Assembly: GCA_963790805.1 (NCBI GenBank)
Contig: CAWBPL010000002.1
Location: 770,696-823,813 of the forward strand
DNA length: 53,118 nt
Direction of reading: 5' to 3'
Source of the DNA: Candidatus Gottesmanbacteria bacterium
GTDB lineage: Bacteria > Patescibacteriota > Microgenomatia > UBA10105 > UBA927
Part shown: one piece after another, positions 9,963 to 43,836 of the stretch
How the letters are laid out: each line of letters opens with the position of its first letter
Position numbering within the stretch: position 1 is the stretch's first letter
Notes under the pieces: generated by a model
What the model saw: only the letters and a program-made list of their open reading frames with translations
Databases searched by the model: none
What the model was told of the DNA's origin: nothing
Program-made: the position numbers and the translations under genes

Positions 9963-20052
<10,090 letters not shown>

Positions 20053-33186: not shown

Positions 33187-35430
33187 ATGTCGAACCTGCC
33201 TAAGCCGGCGAGGATTTTTTGCGTATTTGTCCTTGCCGCCGGATTTTTTGCGATTCACCCACAGGCGCGCGCCGCCATTGATTCCTGCACCGCGAGCGTC
33301 GATGCGCATTCTGTTGCACCCAACAGCACAAATTCGATGAATTTTACCGTAACAAACGGCGGACCGGATAGTGCGAGTTGGGTAAAAATTCACGTACCCC
33401 AGAATTTTACATTTGCTGCAGGAAGTCAATCGGCGCCGGATGGATGGTCGGCATCGATAAACGGTGATAACACGGAAATGACCGTGTCAGGCAGTTCTTT
33501 TGGCACAGGCACTGATCTTCCGGTTGGCGTTCAGGCAACATCGGCCAATGTTACAGCGGGATCGGCTAATTGGTCTATCCAGATTTCCGAGGATGGCGGG
33601 ACTACAACTGTTGATTGTGGCGGTGATTCGCGGGGTACAGCCATTGAAGGAACAGTGTCCATGCCGCCGCCACAAATTTCCAACATTGTCGTATCGGGCA
33701 TTTCGGATTCGCAGGCGACAGTTTCGTGGGACACTGATTTATCGACAAATTCCGTTATCAATTACGGCACAACGACCGATTATGGACAGAATAAATCCGA
33801 TTCGTCGTATGTTCAGTCTCACAGTTTAACGATAAGCGGGCTTACTGCCAATACGACGTATCATTATGACGTTTCAGGCGCTGATTCATCGGGAAACGGA
33901 TCAGACGCCGGAGATAATACATTTGTTACTGCAGCGGCAGGATCAACGACGACTTCAACGACCGGAACCGTTACGACGACAACAACACAGACTGTCATTG
34001 TTCGCATTCCGACGCCCGTGCCGGATACGAGTCCGCCGGAGCTAAGCGTTTCAACAAAATTTACGAAGCCATTCAGCGTTTCTCCGACAATTCAGGGATC
34101 AGCGTCTGACAAAAGCGGTGTGGCAACGATTGAATATTCGCTGGATGACGGGAAAACATGGCTGCCGGTCGATGCGCTTTCATCGCCCGGGGCTAAATCA
34201 ACAACATTTGAATTTACCCCTCCGCCGCTTCTTGATGACAATTATACCCTGCGTATGCGGTCAACCGATATAAAGGGAAATACGGGAACGGTTGCCATAG
34301 GGACACTCATTATCGACCGCCTGCCCCCGAGAATCGGCGGCACTATGGCTTCGATCGGGCCGCAGGTACTCTCACCGTCTCAGGACGGTTCCTATATTAT
34401 TCCGACGGGAATCGACGTGAAGTTGACAATATCTGCAGTTGGAGGACCGACAAACATTGACCTCGGGTATACCAATAAGCACGGAGTTTTCCAAAAAGTT
34501 TCCTTAGATAAAAATACGGATAACGGATTATGGTCGACAATGTTTAATTTCGATACTCCCGGAACGTATACGTTGAGCGCCCATGCGGTCGACGGAGCGA
34601 ATAACGTTGCAGATCGGGATATCGGATCATTCATCGTGGTGCCCAACGGGTCTGTTACAAGCGGGAAGTCCGTCGTCAATCATGGTACTGTAACCGCGTA
34701 TTATCTGGACAGCGTTTTACAAAAATTTGTCCTGTGGAACGGGGAAACGTACGGTCAAACAAATCCACAGCCGATCGATGCCAACGGCAGCTATGCTTTC
34801 TATCTTCCGTCCGGAACGTATTACCTGAATGTGACGTCTGGAGGATATAAATCGCTGAAAACTTCAATTTTTACGCTTACTGATGCGCGTCCGATTGTTA
34901 CGAATTTTTTACTTGTTCGGGCGCGTGCGATCAAATTTGGCCCATGGATTATACCGCTTCCGGATTTTCGCCAGACGACAGCCCGCGTGAACATAGATAC
35001 ATCCTTGTCATCATCTCAAAGCATCATCTCGCCTCTTGTCGGGAAAGAAGTACCGTATTTCAGTTTGCTTTCAGAGGGCAAGCCGGTTACGAGTTTTGAT
35101 TTGATGGGGAAGCCATCCGTCATTACGTTTCTGAACACTTGGCTTCCGACGGCGACCGTACAATTATCGATCCTTAATGAGTTAGCCAAAAACACATCGC
35201 TTAACGTTCTCGTCATTATCCCGCAGGAGACGGTTTCCAGCGTGGCGATATATAAAGCCAGAGGGGGGTATACGATCCCAATCGTTGCGGATCCTGACGG
35301 CAACCTCGTTGATCCTCTCAATCTCCACTCGCTGCCTATTCATGTGATTGTCGACAGAAAAGGCACAATACAGTCCATTCGTTCAGGGGTATTTAATAAT
35401 AGTGAGTTGTTCGATATGATAATACCGTAA
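33187..35430 (+). CDS. Secreted multi-Ig/Fn3 protein with C-terminal Cys-less TlpA/redoxin-fold domain
   Basis: Signal peptide. Fn3-like ATVSWDTD...YGTT...HSLTISGLTANTTYHY. Carboxypeptidase-regulatory-like segment. Redoxin-like GKPSVITFLNTWLPTA...PIVADPDG...LPIHVIVDRKG. Confidence 0.75.
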   Translation: MSNLPKPARIFCVFVLAAGFFAIHPQARAAIDSCTASVDAHSVAPNSTNSMNFTVTNGGPDSASWVKIHVPQNFTFAAGSQSAPDGWSASINGDNTEMTVSGSSFGTGTDLPVGVQATSANVTAGSANWSIQISEDGGTTTVDCGGDSRGTAIEGTVSMPPPQISNIVVSGISDSQATVSWDTDLSTNSVINYGTTTDYGQNKSDSSYVQSHSLTISGLTANTTYHYDVSGADSSGNGSDAGDNTFVTAAAGSTTTSTTGTVTTTTTQTVIVRIPTPVPDTSPPELSVSTKFTKPFSVSPTIQGSASDKSGVATIEYSLDDGKTWLPVDALSSPGAKSTTFEFTPPPLLDDNYTLRMRSTDIKGNTGTVAIGTLIIDRLPPRIGGTMASIGPQVLSPSQDGSYIIPTGIDVKLTISAVGGPTNIDLGYTNKHGVFQKVSLDKNTDNGLWSTMFNFDTPGTYTLSAHAVDGANNVADRDIGSFIVVPNGSVTSGKSVVNHGTVTAYYLDSVLQKFVLWNGETYGQTNPQPIDANGSYAFYLPSGTYYLNVTSGGYKSLKTSIFTLTDARPIVTNFLLVRARAIKFGPWIIPLPDFRQTTARVNIDTSLSSSQSIISPLVGKEVPYFSLLSEGKPVTSFDLMGKPSVITFLNTWLPTATVQLSILNELAKNTSLNVLVIIPQETVSSVAIYKARGGYTIPIVADPDGNLVDPLNLHSLPIHVIVDRKGTIQSIRSGVFNNSELFDMIIP

Positions 35431-35449: not shown

Positions 35450-37048
35450 ATGTGGTTACAGTTTTTATTAGAGAATGCACACTTTGCGATAAACCTCTTT
35501 TTCGCACTGGTGCTTTTTGCCGTATTCTGGCTGTATTACGACGCGTGGACACAACGGAAACACGCCAAAGACGTTATTAAGCTCGCGGGATATTTTTTCC
35601 TTTCGGTGTCATTTGTTGTTCAGGCGATATATATAGAGAGTTCTATTTTAACGACGTCATTTATAAATGCATCCGTCCAGACATGGGCGCTGGCGAGCCT
35701 ACGGATAGCGGGGTTTGTCTGTATAATCATCGGCCTTCTTACCGAACGCATTGAGCCCACTCCGACGCGACAAGCCGGCACTGCGCCTCAATCGTTGGCC
35801 CTCCTTCCGGTCGTTGCCGTACCGGTTATCATCTGGCCGAGTCTTTTGTATCCGATTTTGGCGGCAGTCATTGCTCTTTTGTATTTACGGCGGGCAACGG
35901 TAGGTCTTGAGGACCATTTAAAACCGGTGGCATGGTCGTTTTATTTACTGGCAATCGGAGAATTTATCGCGATGGCGGCACTGTTCCGGCAAAGCGATAA
36001 CGTGACGGTGTATCAGCTGGTAGCCCCGTTCGGACCATTCTGGATAGCAGAACACGCGTTTTATCTTTTTTCCGCTTGTATATTCGGGCGTTGGGTGTTT
36101 GGCTACCTTCTCAAGCAGTTTGAAACGCAGATGTTTATGATTTTTACCGTGACGACGCTCATTATCTTTCTTATTACGACGGTTTCGTTTACCGGATTGC
36201 TTCTTAAAAATATGCAGGATGAAACGCTAAGGCAACTGGGAACCGACGTCAATGTGCTGGATTTTTCGATAAAAAGTAAGAAATCGGAATTACTTTCCGA
36301 TGCAAGCGTTATCGCCCAGAACCCGCAGGTTGTGGCGGCAGTAGGAAGTGGCACGCGAAATGATCTTACTACCATTGCCCAAACATTTCTTTTAACCAAA
36401 AAAGAAAGCAGCCTTATTATCACAAGCGACGCCGGTCAGGTTTTGATGCGCGGGGAGGATAAAGACAGGGCAGGAGATTCACTGTCGGATAATCCCCTTA
36501 TACGGCGGGCGCTTTTAGGTGGTGCCACTGCATCAGTCGTCACCAAAGACGGCGTATTGGCGCCGGAAATTTCAGTGCAGGCCGCAACGCCGATTCAGGA
36601 TCAGGGGAAAGTCATTGGTACTGTACTTGTAGGGAGCGTTATTGATAACGCATTTGTGGACGGTCTCAAGGTGACGACAGGGCTTGAAAGCTCCATTTAC
36701 GGCAATAATCAGGTGTCCGCAAGCACCCTCACGTCGCCCGACGGCAAGTCGCGGCTTATCGGTATCAAAGAGGAAAATGCGGCGATAAAATCAACTGTTC
36801 TGGGTCAGGGGGAAAGTTACAGCGGGTCGGTGACTCTTCTTCAAACGCCGTATTTCGGTGCCTATGTGCCGCTTACCAACGTGGATAACAATCCCGTCGG
36901 CATGCTTTTTGTCGGACGGCCGCAGTATTCGGTTATCGCGGCGGCAGGGAAATCCATCGAATTAACGTTTGTTATCACAGCCCTGCTTCTTGTTCTTTCC
37001 GTCATCCCTTCGTATTTTATTGCGAAATATATCACGTCCCAATTATAA
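35450..37048 (+). CDS. Multi-TM + Cache-domain sensor protein without a cytoplasmic output domain
   Basis: About 7 N-terminal TM. Cache-like LIITSDAGQVLMR...VQAATPI...IGTVLVG...YFGAYVPL...VGMLFVG. Stops right after the last TM (IAKYITSQL*). Confidence 0.75.
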   Translation: MWLQFLLENAHFAINLFFALVLFAVFWLYYDAWTQRKHAKDVIKLAGYFFLSVSFVVQAIYIESSILTTSFINASVQTWALASLRIAGFVCIIIGLLTERIEPTPTRQAGTAPQSLALLPVVAVPVIIWPSLLYPILAAVIALLYLRRATVGLEDHLKPVAWSFYLLAIGEFIAMAALFRQSDNVTVYQLVAPFGPFWIAEHAFYLFSACIFGRWVFGYLLKQFETQMFMIFTVTTLIIFLITTVSFTGLLLKNMQDETLRQLGTDVNVLDFSIKSKKSELLSDASVIAQNPQVVAAVGSGTRNDLTTIAQTFLLTKKESSLIITSDAGQVLMRGEDKDRAGDSLSDNPLIRRALLGGATASVVTKDGVLAPEISVQAATPIQDQGKVIGTVLVGSVIDNAFVDGLKVTTGLESSIYGNNQVSASTLTSPDGKSRLIGIKEENAAIKSTVLGQGESYSGSVTLLQTPYFGAYVPLTNVDNNPVGMLFVGRPQYSVIAAAGKSIELTFVITALLLVLSVIPSYFIAKYITSQL

Positions 37049-37052
37049 CGCT

Positions 37053-38636
37053 ATGTCGATTAGAACAAGAACGTTACTCATGGCAGGTGTTACCATCCTC
37101 GGTCTTCTGTTGACGGTGTCCTTTATTTCCGCTCGGATCCTACTGGATGGTGTCAACAGGTTAGAAGCGAAATGGGTTGAAACGAATACACAACGAGTGA
37201 ATGAAGCGATACGTTCTCAATTAGAGTATTTTCGGACGAAAACGGCGGATTGGGCCTATTGGGACGATTCGTATAACTTTATACTCACCCATGATCCGAC
37301 ATACGTTTCGACAAATCTAGTGCCGGTTTCATTTGTGAACATGAAAGTTGACAGCATTATCTATCTCGATAATAAAAATCGTACTGTGTATGCAAAATCA
37401 TATGATCCGGAAACACAATCTACGTCCACAGTGTCGGCCAATTTAATTGAGGATGCGCGGCAAATAAACAACCAGTTGTTGGCGGCTCCCATGGGGACCG
37501 ATGTGACGGGGCTTATTCTTCTTCCTGAAGGACCCACGTATATTTCAGCGCGCCAGATATTACATAGCGACAACACAGGGCCAGCCGTCGGGATCTTATT
37601 GTTCTCTGAAAGTATAGATAAAGAAGAAATAAAGCGTCTTGCCAGTGTAACCAAGACACAACTTGAAGCATACCGGCTGGATGAACCGATGCCTCCTTCT
37701 GATCAGCACATGGTTCAGGTATTGAAGAGTAAACCATTTGCTTTAATGGATCTCAGTGGGACTCAGGTTGCCGGTTTTACCATGCAAAAAGATGTAAACA
37801 GTAAAAACATAATGCTTTTAGACGTTATCCAGAGCCGTGATTACTACACGGAAGGCGTCCGTGATGTAAAAATTTTACTGGTTGGATTCGGGGCTGTCGG
37901 CTTGGTCTTTTTGATCATTGTATTGATTGCGCTTGAGCGTTTTGTTCTTTCGCCTCTCGTGAGACTTCGGGTTGATGTTGATCGAATATCGGAAAGCGGA
38001 GATTTGCGCGAGCGGCTCACGGATGAAGGATCAAACGATGAATTTGGGGTGCTCACGCGGGACCTCAATAAAATGCTTCAATCGCTGGAATATTCCCAGC
38101 GGTTACTGAAAACCGAACGCGAACGTTCGAAGACGTATGTGAACGTTGTTGGGGTCATTATGATAACACTTTCACCCTCAGGTACTGTGACATTTATAAA
38201 CAAACGGGCATCAGAGGTTCTTGAAGTATCCCAAACTGATGCGATGGGGAAAAACTGGTTTGATACATTTATTCCTGAAAACGAGCGGGCAAAGATGAAA
38301 GACATTTTTGCTCATGTGCTGCAGACGAAAACCGATGAGTATATCCTGCATGAAAATGAAGTCATCACCAAAAGCGGGAAACTGCGCCTGATTCCTTGGC
38401 GCAACGTCGTGATCCGAAATGAAAGCGGAGTGGTTATTGAGGTCTTAAGTAGCGGCGAGGACATCACGGATACGAAAGAGTCTCGGGAAAAAGCTTTTGC
38501 GCATGCACAGGAACTGGAACAACTGAACCAGATGATGGTCGGCCGCGAGCTGAAGATGACGGAGCTTAAAAGTCAGATTAGCGCAAAGGAGAAAGAGATC
38601 AGTGAATTAAAAGCAAAACTGGGAATTACATCATAA
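37053..38636 (+). CDS. CHASE4-HAMP-PAS sensor lacking a kinase domain
   Basis: DWAYWDDSYNF (CHASE4), PLVRL...DEFGVLTRDLNKML (HAMP), a PAS domain, then a VGRELKM coiled coil and stop. Confidence 0.85.
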   Translation: MSIRTRTLLMAGVTILGLLLTVSFISARILLDGVNRLEAKWVETNTQRVNEAIRSQLEYFRTKTADWAYWDDSYNFILTHDPTYVSTNLVPVSFVNMKVDSIIYLDNKNRTVYAKSYDPETQSTSTVSANLIEDARQINNQLLAAPMGTDVTGLILLPEGPTYISARQILHSDNTGPAVGILLFSESIDKEEIKRLASVTKTQLEAYRLDEPMPPSDQHMVQVLKSKPFALMDLSGTQVAGFTMQKDVNSKNIMLLDVIQSRDYYTEGVRDVKILLVGFGAVGLVFLIIVLIALERFVLSPLVRLRVDVDRISESGDLRERLTDEGSNDEFGVLTRDLNKMLQSLEYSQRLLKTERERSKTYVNVVGVIMITLSPSGTVTFINKRASEVLEVSQTDAMGKNWFDTFIPENERAKMKDIFAHVLQTKTDEYILHENEVITKSGKLRLIPWRNVVIRNESGVVIEVLSSGEDITDTKESREKAFAHAQELEQLNQMMVGRELKMTELKSQISAKEKEISELKAKLGITS

Positions 38637-38638
38637 GT

Positions 38639-40258
38639 ATGGATACCGTTCGATTTCAGGAAATTATTGCTCACATTCCGGATGTCATAACGATCATAAG
38701 TCCCGAAGGAAAAATTTTGTTTGACAGCGATGCTGTCACGGCTGTATACGGGTATGCAAAAGATGAACAGCTTGGAAAAAACGTATTAAACTATGTTCAT
38801 CCTCTTGATTTGCCGAACATCGTAACGCTCCTTTCCGAAGTGCTGCAAAATCCCGCCAAGGTATATACCGTACAGTTGCGGTATAAACACAAAAACGGTT
38901 CGTGGCTACTTATCGAGATTAACGCATCGTATTTGTCGAGTATAGCCGGTTTTAACGGACTTTTGATTGTTTCGCGCGACATTTCTTCGACCCGGCGCGT
39001 TGACAACACAACGCTGATGCTTGAAAAAGCTGTTGAATCGGCAGGGGAAGTCATATTTATTACGGATGTCAAGGGCACATTTACGTACGTCAATCCGCAA
39101 TTCAGCGCAGTGTACGGGTTTACGTCAGAAGAGGTCTGCGGCAAGGTTACCCCTCGCGTCATAAAAAGCGGGAAGCATGCGAAAGAAGTATACGAACAAT
39201 TTTGGAAAACGCTCCTCAACAAAAAAATTGTTTCGGGAGAAATTGTGAACAAACAGAAATCCGGAACGCTTGTGACGGTTGAAGGATCATCAAGTGCGAT
39301 CGTAGATGATAAAGGCAATATATTAGGGTTTTTAGCCATCCAACGGGATATTTCAGCCCGCAAAAAACTGGAGCAGGATTTGATGACGTATAAATTGGCT
39401 CTTGAACATGCGACGAATCATATTGTAATTACCGATCCAGACGGGACGATTCTGTTCGCCAACAAAGGTGTTGAGAACATTACGGGATTTTCCAAGGAGG
39501 AAGTGATTGGTAAGACGCCGCGGTTGTGGGGCCGTCAGATGGATAAAGAGTTTTATGAAGCTTTCTGGCACATGATCAAAGACGAGCGCAAACCGTTTAC
39601 AGGGGAGCTGCGCAATAAAAGGAAAAACGGAGAAGTGTATTGGGCCACCGCTTCGGTGTCTCCGATTGTAGACAACGGTGAGCTTAAGGGATTTGTCGGC
39701 GTTGAAGAGGACATTACTGAGCGAAAAAATGCCCTAAAAGCGCTTGAGGACAGCGAAGAGCGATTTGAGGCTTTCATGCAAAAAAGTCCTTCACATGCAT
39801 GGATGAAAGATACAACATCCCGGCATGTTTATGTCAATGAAACATACTGTAAATTTTTTCAAGTCACTCCTGAATATATGAAAACGAAAACAGATTATGA
39901 TCTCTATCCAAAAGATACTGCAGACATTCTGCACGCGCATGATTTACAGGTTATTGCAGCCGGTAAGCCGATGGAATTTGAGGAATGGAAGCCGTCTCCA
40001 AGCGGCGAAAAGCACGTATGGTCGGTGTATAAATTTCCCTTTACGGATGCTTCAGGACAGGAAATGGTGGGTGGTTTGGCAATAGATATCACAGAGAGAA
40101 AGAAATCAGAGCAGGCGTTTCAGGAACACAGGGAGGAATTAGAGAAGATGAATGCGCTTATGGTCGGACGTGAATTGAAGATGGTAGAACTCAAAAATCA
40201 GATGGAAGCCCAAGCCAAAGAAATCAGCGAGTTGAAATCGAAGCTTCGGCAGACGTAA
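38639..40258 (+). CDS. Cytoplasmic 4xPAS/PAC protein lacking a kinase domain
   Basis: Four PAS repeats ending RDIS/EDITE/DITE, then a VGRELKM coiled coil and stop. Confidence 0.85.
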   Translation: MDTVRFQEIIAHIPDVITIISPEGKILFDSDAVTAVYGYAKDEQLGKNVLNYVHPLDLPNIVTLLSEVLQNPAKVYTVQLRYKHKNGSWLLIEINASYLSSIAGFNGLLIVSRDISSTRRVDNTTLMLEKAVESAGEVIFITDVKGTFTYVNPQFSAVYGFTSEEVCGKVTPRVIKSGKHAKEVYEQFWKTLLNKKIVSGEIVNKQKSGTLVTVEGSSSAIVDDKGNILGFLAIQRDISARKKLEQDLMTYKLALEHATNHIVITDPDGTILFANKGVENITGFSKEEVIGKTPRLWGRQMDKEFYEAFWHMIKDERKPFTGELRNKRKNGEVYWATASVSPIVDNGELKGFVGVEEDITERKNALKALEDSEERFEAFMQKSPSHAWMKDTTSRHVYVNETYCKFFQVTPEYMKTKTDYDLYPKDTADILHAHDLQVIAAGKPMEFEEWKPSPSGEKHVWSVYKFPFTDASGQEMVGGLAIDITERKKSEQAFQEHREELEKMNALMVGRELKMVELKNQMEAQAKEISELKSKLRQT

Positions 40259-40273
40259 CGCAGCATAGACAAT

Positions 40274-42964
40274 ATGGATACACTACTCAACATTTTTCCT
40301 AACCCCTACGCAATCGTATTTTTTGCGATATTCGTCGCCAATGTCCTCTTTGCGGGTTACGTGTATTCCAAGAGAGGATCATCTAACGAACGCACTATTT
40401 TCTGGTTTTCATTCATGATGCTTGTAAGCAGCGGTTGGGCGCTCGGGCAATTCGGCATGTCTTTTGCAACAACCGCAGCACCATACGGACTTTGGTATTC
40501 GTTCACGGAATTAGCGGTGGCCTTTCTTATGCCGGTGTATGTGTGTTTTGTGCTGTCGTTCGTCGGAAAGGGAAAGGTGATCGCGCGGTTTGATTTTATG
40601 GCATTCGTTTTAGGGACGACTGCCGCGTTACTCTATGTCTATTGGAGAACTGACATTATCACCATCCACAATTTTGCGCTTGCTATCAAAATGCCGTGGG
40701 GGTATGAGTACCCGCGCGGTCCGGTTCCATGGGATCTCTTCGTTATCGGGTCGTATGTCTGTTATATGCTTTTTGAACTTTTCTCCTATTACGCCGGCGT
40801 GAAAGATCCGGTAAAAAAGCATCAGATCGGGCTTATCACCTTGGCGATCATGATTCCCAGTGTTGGTGGTATTATTTTTCAGGGAGTCCTCCCTGTGTTT
40901 TTTAAAGTCGCGGAGTTACCGGTTACGCCGCCACTTATTTTTCTGACAAGTATTATTGTGGGGTATACGCTTATTCGCTATGGTACAGGAGTTTTTTCTC
41001 TCACTGAAGCGTCCGTGGATATATTGCAAATGATTCCGGATTCGCTTTTCATATTGGATCCTTCCTTGCATATTCAGATGGCAAATCCCTCAGCTGCGAA
41101 ACTTTTGGGGGTTCGCGTTGAAGAACTCAGCGGAAGAACGCTTGATAGTTTTCTCGGTTCTGATGCTGATAAAGTTTTTTGGCGGGAAAAAATTGTTGAT
41201 CCGCTGACCCACTGGCGTGAGGTCAAAAACGTAGAAATAACGTTTCCGGGTGCGGCAGGCGTCACCTCTCCGGTGAGAATTCATGCTATTGCCCATCGTG
41301 AGAAAGATAAAGTTGTGAGCATTATTATGCTTCTTACTGATATTTCCGTCATAAAAGAAAATGAACAGAAAGTGTTAACAACGGTGCAGCGTACGCAGGA
41401 GCAAAACGTGCTTTTGGAGCAAAACAAAAAAGCGATGCTTAATCTTCTTGAGGATTCGCGGGAGCTTGAGGGCGAACTAAAGTCGGAGCGCGATCGGGCC
41501 AATACAATTGTTAACTCTATGAGTGAGGGGCTGTTTGTGGTTGACAAGAATTACCGCATTACACTGATCAATCCGACGGCGGAGAGAATTTTTGAACTAT
41601 CTGGTAAAAATGCGGTCGGTCAGACTCTACCGTCTGTTACGACTGTTTTAAAGGAAGGAAAAGTATTGCCAGATGCGGAGCGGCCGGTCATGCGGACGCT
41701 TACCACAGGAGAGTCCATGGTTCTCGGTCTGGAGGATGATTACCAGCTTAAGTCCGTAAGCGGAAGGGTGTTTCCTGCGTCTATATCGACCGCCGCACTC
41801 AAGCAGGGAGATAAAATAATCGGTGCGCTTGTGACATTTCACGATATTTCAAAAGACAAAGAGGTGAAAGAGACTATAGAAAAAACCGTCGATGAGCGTA
41901 CCCGCGAGCTGAAAGAGGAACAGGCGCGGCTCACGGCTTCCATCAACAGCTTGGAGCTCGGATTTATGCTGACAGACGCGAGCGGCCGTATTTTCTCGAA
42001 AAATCCGGCTCTCGGGAGCATCCTCAACTTACCGTGGGGTGTCAAAACTCTGGAAGAGATAGATGCATCTCTAAAAGCCTCGTTTTCATTTACGGCAATG
42101 TACAATCAGGCGCGCAACGAGCATCGACCTGTTGATTTAAAAAACTTAGCGTTCGAAGCGAAAAATATCGCCGTATTCGCGGCACCGATTTATGTGGGCG
42201 GAAGAGATGAAGACTTCATCGGTTTGGTTATTCTTGTTCAGGATCAGACTGAGGCAAAGGTATTGGAGCGTTCGCGCGATGAATTTTTCTCTATAGCGTC
42301 GCATGAATTGCGAACGCCTTTAACCGCCATCCGCGGCAACACGTCGCTTATTCAGGAGCACTACAGCGATAAACTGGATCCCGAGCTCAAGGAGATGGTA
42401 AACGACATTTATGAAAGCAGCGTCAGGCTTATCGATATCGTGAACGACTTTTTGAATATGGGTAGGCTTGAGCAGCAGCGGTTTACCTTTAAAAATGAAG
42501 CGTTCGGTATGGAAGATCTCATTTCTGATGCTCTGAAAGAATATCAGGTGACGGGATCCCGGCAACACCTGTCACTCGATTTTGAGAAACCTTCTGAGTC
42601 GCTTCCGAAGGCATTCGCTGATAAAGAGCGCATCCGGCAAGTTGTTGTGAATCTTATCGGAAACAGTCTGAAGTTTACCGAGAACGGCGGAGTGAAGGTT
42701 AAAACAAAGCAGAATAACGGGATGATTGAGGTGTATGTATCCGATACCGGTCGGGGAATACCATTGCAAAATCAGTCGCTCTTATTTCATAAATTCCAGC
42801 AGGCGGGAGAGAGTCTATTCACCCGTGACACAACAAGAGGAACGGGTCTGGGGTTATATATTTCAAAACTCATGATAGAGGCTATGGGCGGAAAAATCTG
42901 GTTAGTGAGTTCCGAGGAAGGTAAAGGATCAACGTTCGCATTTAGTATACCGGTTGCCCGATAA
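40274..42964 (+). CDS. 7TM-PAS-PAS sensor histidine kinase
   Basis: About 7 TM N-terminus, PAS domains, H-box FFSIASHELRTPL, N-box NLIGNSLKFT, and DTGRGI / GTGLGL G-boxes. Confidence 0.95.
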   Translation: MDTLLNIFPNPYAIVFFAIFVANVLFAGYVYSKRGSSNERTIFWFSFMMLVSSGWALGQFGMSFATTAAPYGLWYSFTELAVAFLMPVYVCFVLSFVGKGKVIARFDFMAFVLGTTAALLYVYWRTDIITIHNFALAIKMPWGYEYPRGPVPWDLFVIGSYVCYMLFELFSYYAGVKDPVKKHQIGLITLAIMIPSVGGIIFQGVLPVFFKVAELPVTPPLIFLTSIIVGYTLIRYGTGVFSLTEASVDILQMIPDSLFILDPSLHIQMANPSAAKLLGVRVEELSGRTLDSFLGSDADKVFWREKIVDPLTHWREVKNVEITFPGAAGVTSPVRIHAIAHREKDKVVSIIMLLTDISVIKENEQKVLTTVQRTQEQNVLLEQNKKAMLNLLEDSRELEGELKSERDRANTIVNSMSEGLFVVDKNYRITLINPTAERIFELSGKNAVGQTLPSVTTVLKEGKVLPDAERPVMRTLTTGESMVLGLEDDYQLKSVSGRVFPASISTAALKQGDKIIGALVTFHDISKDKEVKETIEKTVDERTRELKEEQARLTASINSLELGFMLTDASGRIFSKNPALGSILNLPWGVKTLEEIDASLKASFSFTAMYNQARNEHRPVDLKNLAFEAKNIAVFAAPIYVGGRDEDFIGLVILVQDQTEAKVLERSRDEFFSIASHELRTPLTAIRGNTSLIQEHYSDKLDPELKEMVNDIYESSVRLIDIVNDFLNMGRLEQQRFTFKNEAFGMEDLISDALKEYQVTGSRQHLSLDFEKPSESLPKAFADKERIRQVVVNLIGNSLKFTENGGVKVKTKQNNGMIEVYVSDTGRGIPLQNQSLLFHKFQQAGESLFTRDTTRGTGLGLYISKLMIEAMGGKIWLVSSEEGKGSTFAFSIPVAR

Positions 42965-43017
42965 AGGGTAAGGGCCCTTGCAAGAGGGGGCGGAAGGTAT
43001 TAATGTAGGATTATACA

Positions 43018-43428
43018 ATGAATAAAACACTTCTTATCATCGAAGACGATCCGTATGTTCAGCGGTATTTTAAGCGGTTGTTTGAAGCAGAGCATTATGT
43101 ATTTGAGATTGTCGGCAGTGGAGAAGAGGGGATAACCCGTGCCAAAGCGCTGCAACCGGCTCTGATTCTTTTGGATGTTATGATGCCGGTCGTGAACGGT
43201 TTTCAGGTACTTGCGATGCTGAAAAACAATCCGAATACCAAGGATTTACACATTGTGATGTTGTCTAATTTTGGTGATGATGAAGCTGTTGCCAAGGCAA
43301 AAGCGCTTGGAGCGCGTGATTTTCTTATCAAATCCGATACTCCGCCGGAAGAACTGGTGCGCCGAATTGAAACATACTTGAAGGAGTCCGACAAGAACGA
43401 TATACTCAAGACAGCAGAGAATTCATAA
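43018..43428 (+). CDS. Single-domain response regulator (REC)
   Basis: LLIIEDD, ILLDVMMP..NG, MLSN and FLIKS motifs. Confidence 0.93.
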   Translation: MNKTLLIIEDDPYVQRYFKRLFEAEHYVFEIVGSGEEGITRAKALQPALILLDVMMPVVNGFQVLAMLKNNPNTKDLHIVMLSNFGDDEAVAKAKALGARDFLIKSDTPPEELVRRIETYLKESDKNDILKTAENS

Positions 43429-43437
43429 TTATTTTTT

Positions 43438-43836
43438 ATGGCAAAAACAATTCTCATCGTCGAAGATGATCCCCTGATGAACAGGATGTATCAGAAAATT
43501 TTTAAGTTTGAACAGTATGACGTTCAGACAGCAACAAACGGGGAAGAGGGCTTAGATAAGGTTCGACAGCTAAAGCCAACCGTTATACTTCTTGACATCA
43601 TGATGCCCAAAATGAACGGTCTTCAGGTTTTGGATAAGCTTAAAAGCGATCCGGAAGTTAAAAATATTCCTGTTATCATGCTTACCAACTTAGCCGGCGA
43701 AAAAGATGCTGAGACGGCGCTTCTCAAAGGTGCGGTAAAGTATATCGTCAAAAGCGAGCACGACCCTAAACAGGTTGTCAACGTGGTTAAAGAGATTATA
43801 GCGGCACACTCCAGGGATGATGTGCCGGGGAGTTAG
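43438..43836 (+). CDS. Single-domain response regulator (REC)
   Basis: ILIVEDD, LLDIMMPKMNG, MLTN and YIVKS motifs. Confidence 0.93.
   Translation: MAKTILIVEDDPLMNRMYQKIFKFEQYDVQTATNGEEGLDKVRQLKPTVILLDIMMPKMNGLQVLDKLKSDPEVKNIPVIMLTNLAGEKDAETALLKGAVKYIVKSEHDPKQVVNVVKEIIAAHSRDDVPGS

Follow-up and report, generated by a model that had tools for sequence, protein, structure and literature searches.

Background

Auxiliary regulators of histidine kinases, which form so-called 'three-component systems', include Sda and KipI acting on KinA, LuxP on LuxQ and FixT on FixL; Sda and KipI are anti-kinases that act on the DHp/CA core of the kinase. Short LOV/PAS proteins, such as PpSB1-LOV and RsLOV, are effector-less PAS sensors whose C-terminal J-alpha helix is thought to mediate protein-protein signalling. 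In polyketide and non-ribosomal peptide synthases, short C-terminal helices serve as docking domains that dock on N-terminal helices of the next polypeptide, usually the product of the next gene. Here, we describe a gene cluster in a 53,118-nucleotide stretch of the genome of a Candidatus Gottesmanbacteria bacterium (contig CAWBPL010000002.1, positions 770,696 to 823,813; hereafter, the window). Two sensor proteins of this cluster contain no kinase domain and end in the same conserved helix (the tail), and the gene that follows them encodes a histidine kinase with an internal helix of the form 'A.LN.LED' (the LN helix). Our findings suggest that the pairing of tail and LN helix is a way to plug separate sensors into one kinase that is not described in the papers and databases searched.

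Accessory proteins of histidine kinases have been reviewed (PMC12471899). Split histidine kinases are reported to have their catalytic machinery divided between polypeptides (PMC3591291; Hik36-Hik43, PMC7656254). The signalling helix (S-helix) is a heptad coiled coil with an 'ERT' signature at positions c, d and e of the central heptad and a conserved Arg at core position 'd', and it is almost always flanked by two domains of the same protein (Anantharaman, Balaji, Aravind 2006, PMC1592074).

Results

Two sensors without a kinase domain end in the same tail

The features central to this study are as follows.

37053-38636, + strand: kinase-less sensor 1, 527 amino acids; transmembrane helix (TM), CHASE4, TM, HAMP, PAS and C-terminal tail (Pfam)
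38460-38621, + strand: tail of sensor 1, spanning the PAS 'DIT' motif through the last residue of the conserved helix (translation)
38639-40258, + strand: kinase-less sensor 2, 539 amino acids; four PAS stretches (4xPAS; Pfam) and C-terminal tail
40085-40246, + strand: tail of sensor 2, used as the query for the family search (translation)
40274-42964, + strand: histidine kinase, 896 amino acids; HisKA_7TM, PAS, LN helix, PAS, PAS-like region, HisKA and HATPase_c (Pfam)
41426-41482, + strand: LN helix, the proposed socket, KKAMLNLLEDSRELEGELK, kinase residues 385-403 (translation)
43018-43428, + strand: single-domain response regulator 1, 136 amino acids (Pfam Response_reg, 9.4e-22)
43438-43836, + strand: single-domain response regulator 2, 132 amino acids (Pfam Response_reg, 7.3e-27)

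An earlier note on this DNA had reported two 37-amino-acid tails with 26 identical residues, and translation confirmed both the count and the coordinates (38511-38621 and 40136-40246). The sole significant BLASTP segment between sensor 1 and sensor 2 comprises their C-terminal 54 residues, with 32/54 identical and an E-value of 2e-15; the similarity of the two tails is far beyond chance. The tail cores are GRELKMTELK in sensor 1 (38541-38570) and GRELKMVELK in sensor 2 (40166-40195), as read from the translation, and in sensor 1 the spacing from the 'DIT' Asp to the core Gly is 27 residues, the modal value of the family. Pfam identified CHASE4 (5.5e-31), HAMP (9.9e-9) and PAS_4 (9.9e-9) in sensor 1. 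Searches of both proteins against Pfam and NCBIfam returned CHASE4, HAMP and PAS domains only and no HisKA, HATPase, GGDEF or other output domain, in agreement with the earlier note. Its description of the sensors as otherwise unrelated was nearly right, since each tail follows a PAS domain; the PAS domains of the two proteins are ~21% identical.

The tail is a conserved C-terminal module

When the final 60 residues of sensor 2 were used in a word-indexed search, 80 proteins carrying the tail were returned, mostly from Patescibacteria, and the core G-R-E-L-K-M-[VI]-E-L-K was invariant in 80/80, lying 9-41 residues from the C-terminus. The additional domains of these relatives were sensor or receiver domains only (PAS, GAF, CHASE, CHASE4, Cache and REC). 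No HisKA, HATPase or GGDEF domain was found among the 80, though kinases of such length were eligible. A tail profile was searched against 1.84 billion cluster representatives (50%-identity clusters), of which 15,363 matched at E<=1e-3 and 1,498 at E<=1e-10. The proteins returned had a median distance from motif to C-terminus of 20 residues, and ~95% of 205 proteins carried the tail 5-35 amino acids from the C-terminus. The consensus, ELEkfNklmVGRELKMvELKkeI, spans ~30 residues, with GRELRM, GRELDM and GREEKM as core variants, and a kinase core was found in 0/223 tail proteins. The tail is a real, strongly conserved C-terminal module. Neither the tail nor the LN motif is covered by Pfam, NCBIfam or PDB chains, and a literature search using the motif strings and the concepts of split, docking and accessory sensors returned nothing relevant to either.

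In a subgroup of tail proteins (L014, L018, L020, L024, L040 and L047; P0115, P0138 and P0196), the tail is followed by an extra conserved segment of ~80 residues (…DLEE..V..L.G.Y…D…RHE.L…) for which no Pfam match was found.

The LN helix and its kinases

The gene that follows sensor 2 encodes a sensor histidine kinase with HisKA (2.3e-19) and HATPase_c (2.4e-25) domains by Pfam. It is the sole kinase of the window, as the earlier note had stated, and one of three in the genome. The internal helix that the note had placed between PAS domains lies at 41426-41482, between the PAS domains at kinase residues 255-358 and 411-525, and includes KKAMLNLLED. An LN profile matched this helix at E=1.2e-8 in a search of its own genome, and neither of the other two kinases bears an LN helix.

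In other genomes, the LN consensus is xxA[ILVM]LN[ILM][LM]ED, occurring singly or as 2-5 tandem repeats with a repeat length of exactly 21 residues (18/18 spacings). Some kinases beside tail genes are 'naked', being made up of 2-5 tandem LN units with HisKA and HATPase directly behind them; locus L010 encodes a naked LN-HisKA kinase. At L068 (260-1816), LN repeats lie ahead of a HisKA_2-type kinase core (…REIHHRVKNNLQ…), and the socket is therefore not limited to HisKA (PF00512) kinases. At L019 (7820-9157), a dCache-HAMP protein has a C-terminal LN-like helix (KFAMMNILQDLKDE) and a tail protein is encoded directly after it; no kinase was found within 3 kb in L019.

The whole genome (1.25 Mb in two contigs) encodes three histidine kinases, five receivers and three tail proteins. 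The third tail protein, located outside the window by a six-frame scan (C2:565434-566474, minus strand), has the architecture TM-sensor-TM-HAMP-S-helix-tail, and no kinase was found near it. With two tails adjoining the LN kinase and a third elsewhere, the locus fits the proposed pattern of tail/LN pairs, and the genome is in keeping with the earlier note's view that many sensors share one transmitter.

Tail genes lie next to LN kinases

In the first three genomic contexts fetched (from Nomurabacteria, Pacearchaeota and an Aenigmarchaeota genome), a kinase follows the tail gene or genes and carries K.A[IV]LN[IM][LM][ED]D right ahead of a PAS domain or of the DHp. One of these loci also encodes a PorA-CHASE protein with a terminal tail. 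A scan of GTDB representative genomes for the tail pattern confirmed at least 458 stretches, from which 80 loci were fetched; 72 had sufficient downstream sequence to be evaluated. In 51/72 loci, a kinase is encoded on the same strand no more than 3 kb downstream, with a gap of <60 nucleotides or a gene overlap in 26 of the 51. The earlier note had proposed checking whether tail and 'A.LN.LED' helix co-occur, and ~46/51 of these downstream adjacent kinases carry the helix. Another 6/72 loci have a kinase in other orientation, 5/6 of them with LN, and LN is rare on kinases elsewhere in the same tail loci. Several tail proteins are often encoded in one locus. The split form, with tail and LN on separate proteins, was also seen in a metagenome-assembled genome of Draconibacterium orientale (L060).

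Two archaeal tail/LN loci (L003, 11689-12168; L004, 7269-7904) also encode small DUF835/DUF7090/DUF7504 proteins with a common FIDCVT motif.

Tail and LN co-occur across genomes

The same check at the level of whole genomes showed near-perfect co-occurrence. Among 301 genomes sampled across the phylum and searched with the tail and LN profiles, 37 carried the tail and 32 carried LN; 30 genomes had both, seven the tail only, two LN only and 262 neither (odds ratio ~560, Fisher p=2.5e-32, a statistic that ignores phylogeny). Three of the seven tail-only genomes have weak matches, and in two the kinase next to the tail gene carries a divergent LN, IAAQNV[LF]ED. One of the two LN-only matches begins at a contig edge and the other is weak and lies in a 37-amino-acid frame. 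LN lies 0.2-2.5 kb downstream of the tail on the same strand in ~24/30 genomes with both, and tails outnumber LN loci by about 2:1 in this sample. In the archaeal class around a Methanotrichaceae locus, the same 4/151 genomes have both motifs and 147 have neither (p=4.8e-8, again ignoring phylogeny).

Natural fusions of tail and LN

In two lineages, one chain carries both tail and LN, joined by a variable linker rich in Pro. The first is a 487-amino-acid Patescibacteria kinase with the order TM, coiled coil, 'VERELRLAELKK', an 18-residue loop containing Pro, 'AMLNILED', PAS and HisKA; no close relatives of this fusion kinase were found, and a homologue search with the natural fusion P0224 returned only P0224 itself. 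The second is a 12-cluster family, to which a protein of Methylomonas sp. LL1 belongs, with the order sensor-PAS, 'GRELDM' tail, a linker of 20-28 residues, 'LAM[IL]NLLED', PAS-PAS and, at the C-terminus, a second tail. This family keeps both motifs, and the linker drifts. Such a pattern, with conserved motifs and a variable linker, fits helices that would pack together.

In Methylomonas sp. LL1, a cultured methanotroph (locus L093; CP064653.1, 1659862-1678699), the fusion protein has 945 amino acids and two tails, and another tail protein is encoded at ~2.08 Mb.

Heptad register and covariation

The spacing from the PAS 'DIT' Asp to the tail Gly is 27 residues in 201 cases, 34 in 11, 20 in six and 13 in one. 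From the Arg of an S-helix 'ERT' to the tail Arg it is 21, 14, 28, 35 or 42 residues. The distance from the LN Asn to the phospho-acceptor His is 28, 35, 42 or 56 residues in 14/14 cases with LN directly before the DHp, a set that represents about seven independent groups. These spacings are quantised in heptads, and those to 'DIT' and 'ERT' support helical continuity of the tail. At covalent PAS-DHp junctions of the same kinases, the 'DIT' Asp lies 20 residues from the His in 37/43. The tail Gly, the LN Asn and the His therefore share one heptad phase. If a tail docked in parallel and in register, the helical phase between its PAS domain and the His would match that of a fused PAS domain. Our heptad assignment would put the invariant Arg of the tail at core position 'd', where the S-helix also has its Arg. 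Conservation extends to every face of the tail helix (10 consecutive residues), which suggests that the helix is enclosed by partners.

Kinases with multiple 'TQRALLNILED[FY]' repeats provided 10 distinct tail-LN pairs from 8 loci in at least five phyla, among archaea, Desulfobacterota, Actinomycetota, Acidobacteriota and Bacteroidota, and they pair with tails of the form F[QR][KR]LTVGRELKM. Thr occurs at tail position -2 in 10/10 of these pairs, as against 3/57 other pairs (p=1e-9). The strongest mutual information links tail -2 with LN -2, which are equivalent core positions in the proposed register. The covariation is consistent with contact between tail and LN and is no proof of it, because both genes are inherited and transferred together.

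The gene cluster and the rest of the window

The genes from 35450 to 43836 lie on one strand and are packed tightly, with intergenic gaps of 4, 2, 15, 53 and 9 nucleotides; sensor 2 begins 2 nucleotides past the stop of sensor 1. No terminator signal stands out above chance across this cluster, and an Rfam scan of the window gave no matches. The reading frame of the 4xPAS gene is also that of the kinase gene, with one TAA and five sense codons (RSIDN) between the two at 40256-40273. In a read-through product, the first TM helix of the kinase would tether the tail.

The cluster begins with one further gene.

35450-37048, + strand: multi-TM dCache_3/sCache_3 protein (Pfam dCache_3, 2.3e-14; sCache_3_3, 4.7e-20)

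Its product stops just past the last TM helix and has neither a cytoplasmic output domain nor a tail, and the gene ends 4 nucleotides ahead of that of sensor 1. It is a possible extra input, which may couple through the membrane to the 7TM domain of the kinase or to the CHASE4 sensor.

Elsewhere in the window, a 2652-amino-acid open reading frame at 12094-20052 encodes collagen triple-helix repeats (Pfam Collagen, 1.2e-139) and a C-terminal H-type lectin domain, and accounts for a GC-rich stretch (0.52-0.58 versus ~0.46). The protein encoded at 9963-12020 combines HTH_17 at its N-terminus with a dCache_1 sensor domain and is possibly a membrane-bound one-component regulator. A secreted 747-amino-acid protein is encoded at 33187-35430 and has fn3 and Big-like domains and a terminal AhpC/TSA (redoxin) domain.

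Discussion

It is likely that tail proteins signal through the kinase encoded with them. How they would do so is a narrower matter, and here we favour, with some reserve, direct non-covalent docking of the tail on the LN helix, by which sensors lacking a kinase domain would be coupled to one kinase as plug to socket. The earlier note's proposal of docking in trans is supported by every comparative test that the sequences allowed. The tail would be the output element of sensors without an enzymatic output and would rigidly extend the output helix of the sensor itself. Its docking site would be the LN helix, which lies in the coiled-coil stalk of a kinase whose gene is usually found immediately downstream. 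A ligand-driven change in the helix of the sensor would then pass through the tail-LN interface into the stalk and on to the phospho-acceptor helix. In the present genome, the CHASE4-HAMP-PAS protein, the 4xPAS protein and the unlinked HAMP-tail protein would all feed the single LN-bearing 7TM-PAS kinase, which would phosphorylate both single-domain receivers. The sequences show that both motifs are conserved, that they occur together by genome and by neighbourhood, that each is in heptad register with its signalling element and that natural fusions of the two exist; direct contact, its parallel in-register geometry and an effect on kinase activity are what we infer from this comparative evidence.

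A broader proposal, which we put forward tentatively and with more doubt than conviction, is that the tail and the 21-residue LN repeat make up a universal, portable and non-covalent connector for two-component signalling in prokaryotes, such that any tailed sensor would dock parallel and in register on LN. The sensor chassis would be PAS arrays, CHASE4/Cache-HAMP proteins, GAF proteins or even receiver-PAS proteins. With tandem LN units (1-5), one kinase would be able to take up several sensors and integrate their signals, and adaptors with LN plus tail, as in Methylomonas, would allow daisy-chaining.

Several observations weigh against docking of the tail on LN, and some of them point to other explanations. 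A single-sequence AlphaFold2 model of the fusion P0224 was poor, with a predicted local distance difference test score (pLDDT) of 45, and showed only a helix at 2-101, a loop at 102-119 and a helix at 120-140. No HisKA-type kinase lies within 3 kb in 15/72 loci; of the two that were inspected, L068 has the HisKA_2-type kinase with LN, and L036 has a degenerate H-box with LN. No LN is recognisable in ~5/51 adjacent kinases. Methylomonas sp. LL1 has three tails and a single LN, which is internal to a non-kinase protein, and the kinase downstream of its fusion protein has no LN. One to three single-domain receivers are encoded in most loci, and a receiver domain occurs in 21/223 tail proteins (~9%), so another partner is possible. 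Finally, joint travel of both genes as one cassette could explain both the co-occurrence and the covariation, and the shuffling controls ignore phylogeny.

The tail might instead be a mere coiled-coil cap that joins sensors as homodimers or as sensor-sensor heterodimers, with the sensors signalling by another route and LN being an unrelated stalk feature of the same cassette. Its heptad periodicity, its position as a continuation of a dimeric PAS or S-helix output helix, the frequency of several tail proteins in one locus and the excess of tails over LN in Methylomonas all suit such a cap. We consider it improbable, given that every face of the helix is invariant over 10 consecutive residues and that, by our assignment, an Arg at core 'd' and invariant Lys at g and e' would be unusual for a simple homodimer cap; moreover, unlinked tail genes occur only in genomes with LN, and the fusions keep both motifs under selection. 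A tail that binds some other partner of the pathway, either the DHp/CA core of the kinase or the single-domain response regulators, with LN not being the contact site, would account for the receivers mentioned above and for the adjacent kinases without LN. It is LN, however, that the tail specifically follows, whereas kinases and receivers are widespread among genomes that have no tail; only the LN kinase, of the three in this genome, is linked to tail genes, and a profile comparison of the tail with DHp helix 1 showed no similarity. Such a partner appears unlikely to us. The earlier note had named as a refutation that the tails are remnants of truncated kinases. On this view, they would be decaying and functionless leftovers of kinases cut off behind the linker helix. 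Tail genes do lie directly upstream of kinase genes, and the 4xPAS and kinase genes share a frame, with a single TAA and five codons between them. This explanation is hardly credible and was rejected, as the invariant core is always C-terminal in thousands of cluster representatives, is found on very diverse sensor architectures, with no kinase core in the 223 proteins examined, and is followed by complete downstream kinases with their own N-termini.

Three further identities were considered for the motifs and rejected. The resemblance of the tail 'RELKMVEL' to the H-box 'HELRTPL' raised the idea of a pseudo-DHp; the hhalign probability of the tail versus DHp was 0.1%, the tail contains no His, Pfam HisKA did not match it even at E<=10, and in the RELKM/HELRT alignment the tail Arg is one residue out of heptad phase with the His. 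Tail and LN are not homologous repeats (hhalign probability 0.3%). On inspection, DNA binding of the bZIP type was dismissed, with the conserved Asn/Arg spacing misfitting the signature of the bZIP basic region and the segment not being basic.

If docking of the tail on LN is correct, thousands of sensors without an output domain that are annotated as 'PAS domain S-box protein' or as hypothetical would gain both an output and a partner. The networks of Patescibacteria, DPANN archaea and many other phyla could be wired from sequence by matching tails to LN helices. It would also add a principle to two-component signalling, namely a signal passed through a non-covalent coiled-coil joint that is kept in helical register, and would offer synthetic biology a small natural plug and socket for attaching arbitrary sensors to a kinase.

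Compared with known systems, the tail resembles the S-helix in being a probable heptad coiled-coil segment that would carry sensor output, with an Arg predicted at core 'd'. It differs in having G-R-E at the positions equivalent to ERT, with only the Arg in common, and tail proteins of the HAMP type have a separate ERT 14-28 residues upstream of the tail. Unlike the S-helix, the tail ends its protein rather than lying between domains, and it correlates with a second motif on another protein. As with the auxiliary regulators, a separate protein is predicted to modulate a histidine kinase by binding; those regulators are individual and system-specific, whereas tail and LN form one portable motif pair that recurs on sensors and kinases of many types, bacterial and archaeal. 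Split histidine kinases likewise spread kinase function over two polypeptides, but here HisKA and HATPase stay together in one intact kinase and the split runs between sensor and transmitter. Short LOV/PAS proteins share with tail proteins a PAS sensor without an effector domain and a helix at the end; to our knowledge, the LOV/PAS proteins lack both a conserved GRELKM core and any known receptor motif that is conserved. The docking domains of polyketide and non-ribosomal peptide synthases would work in an analogous manner, although pathway and sequences are unrelated and the likeness is one of analogy only.

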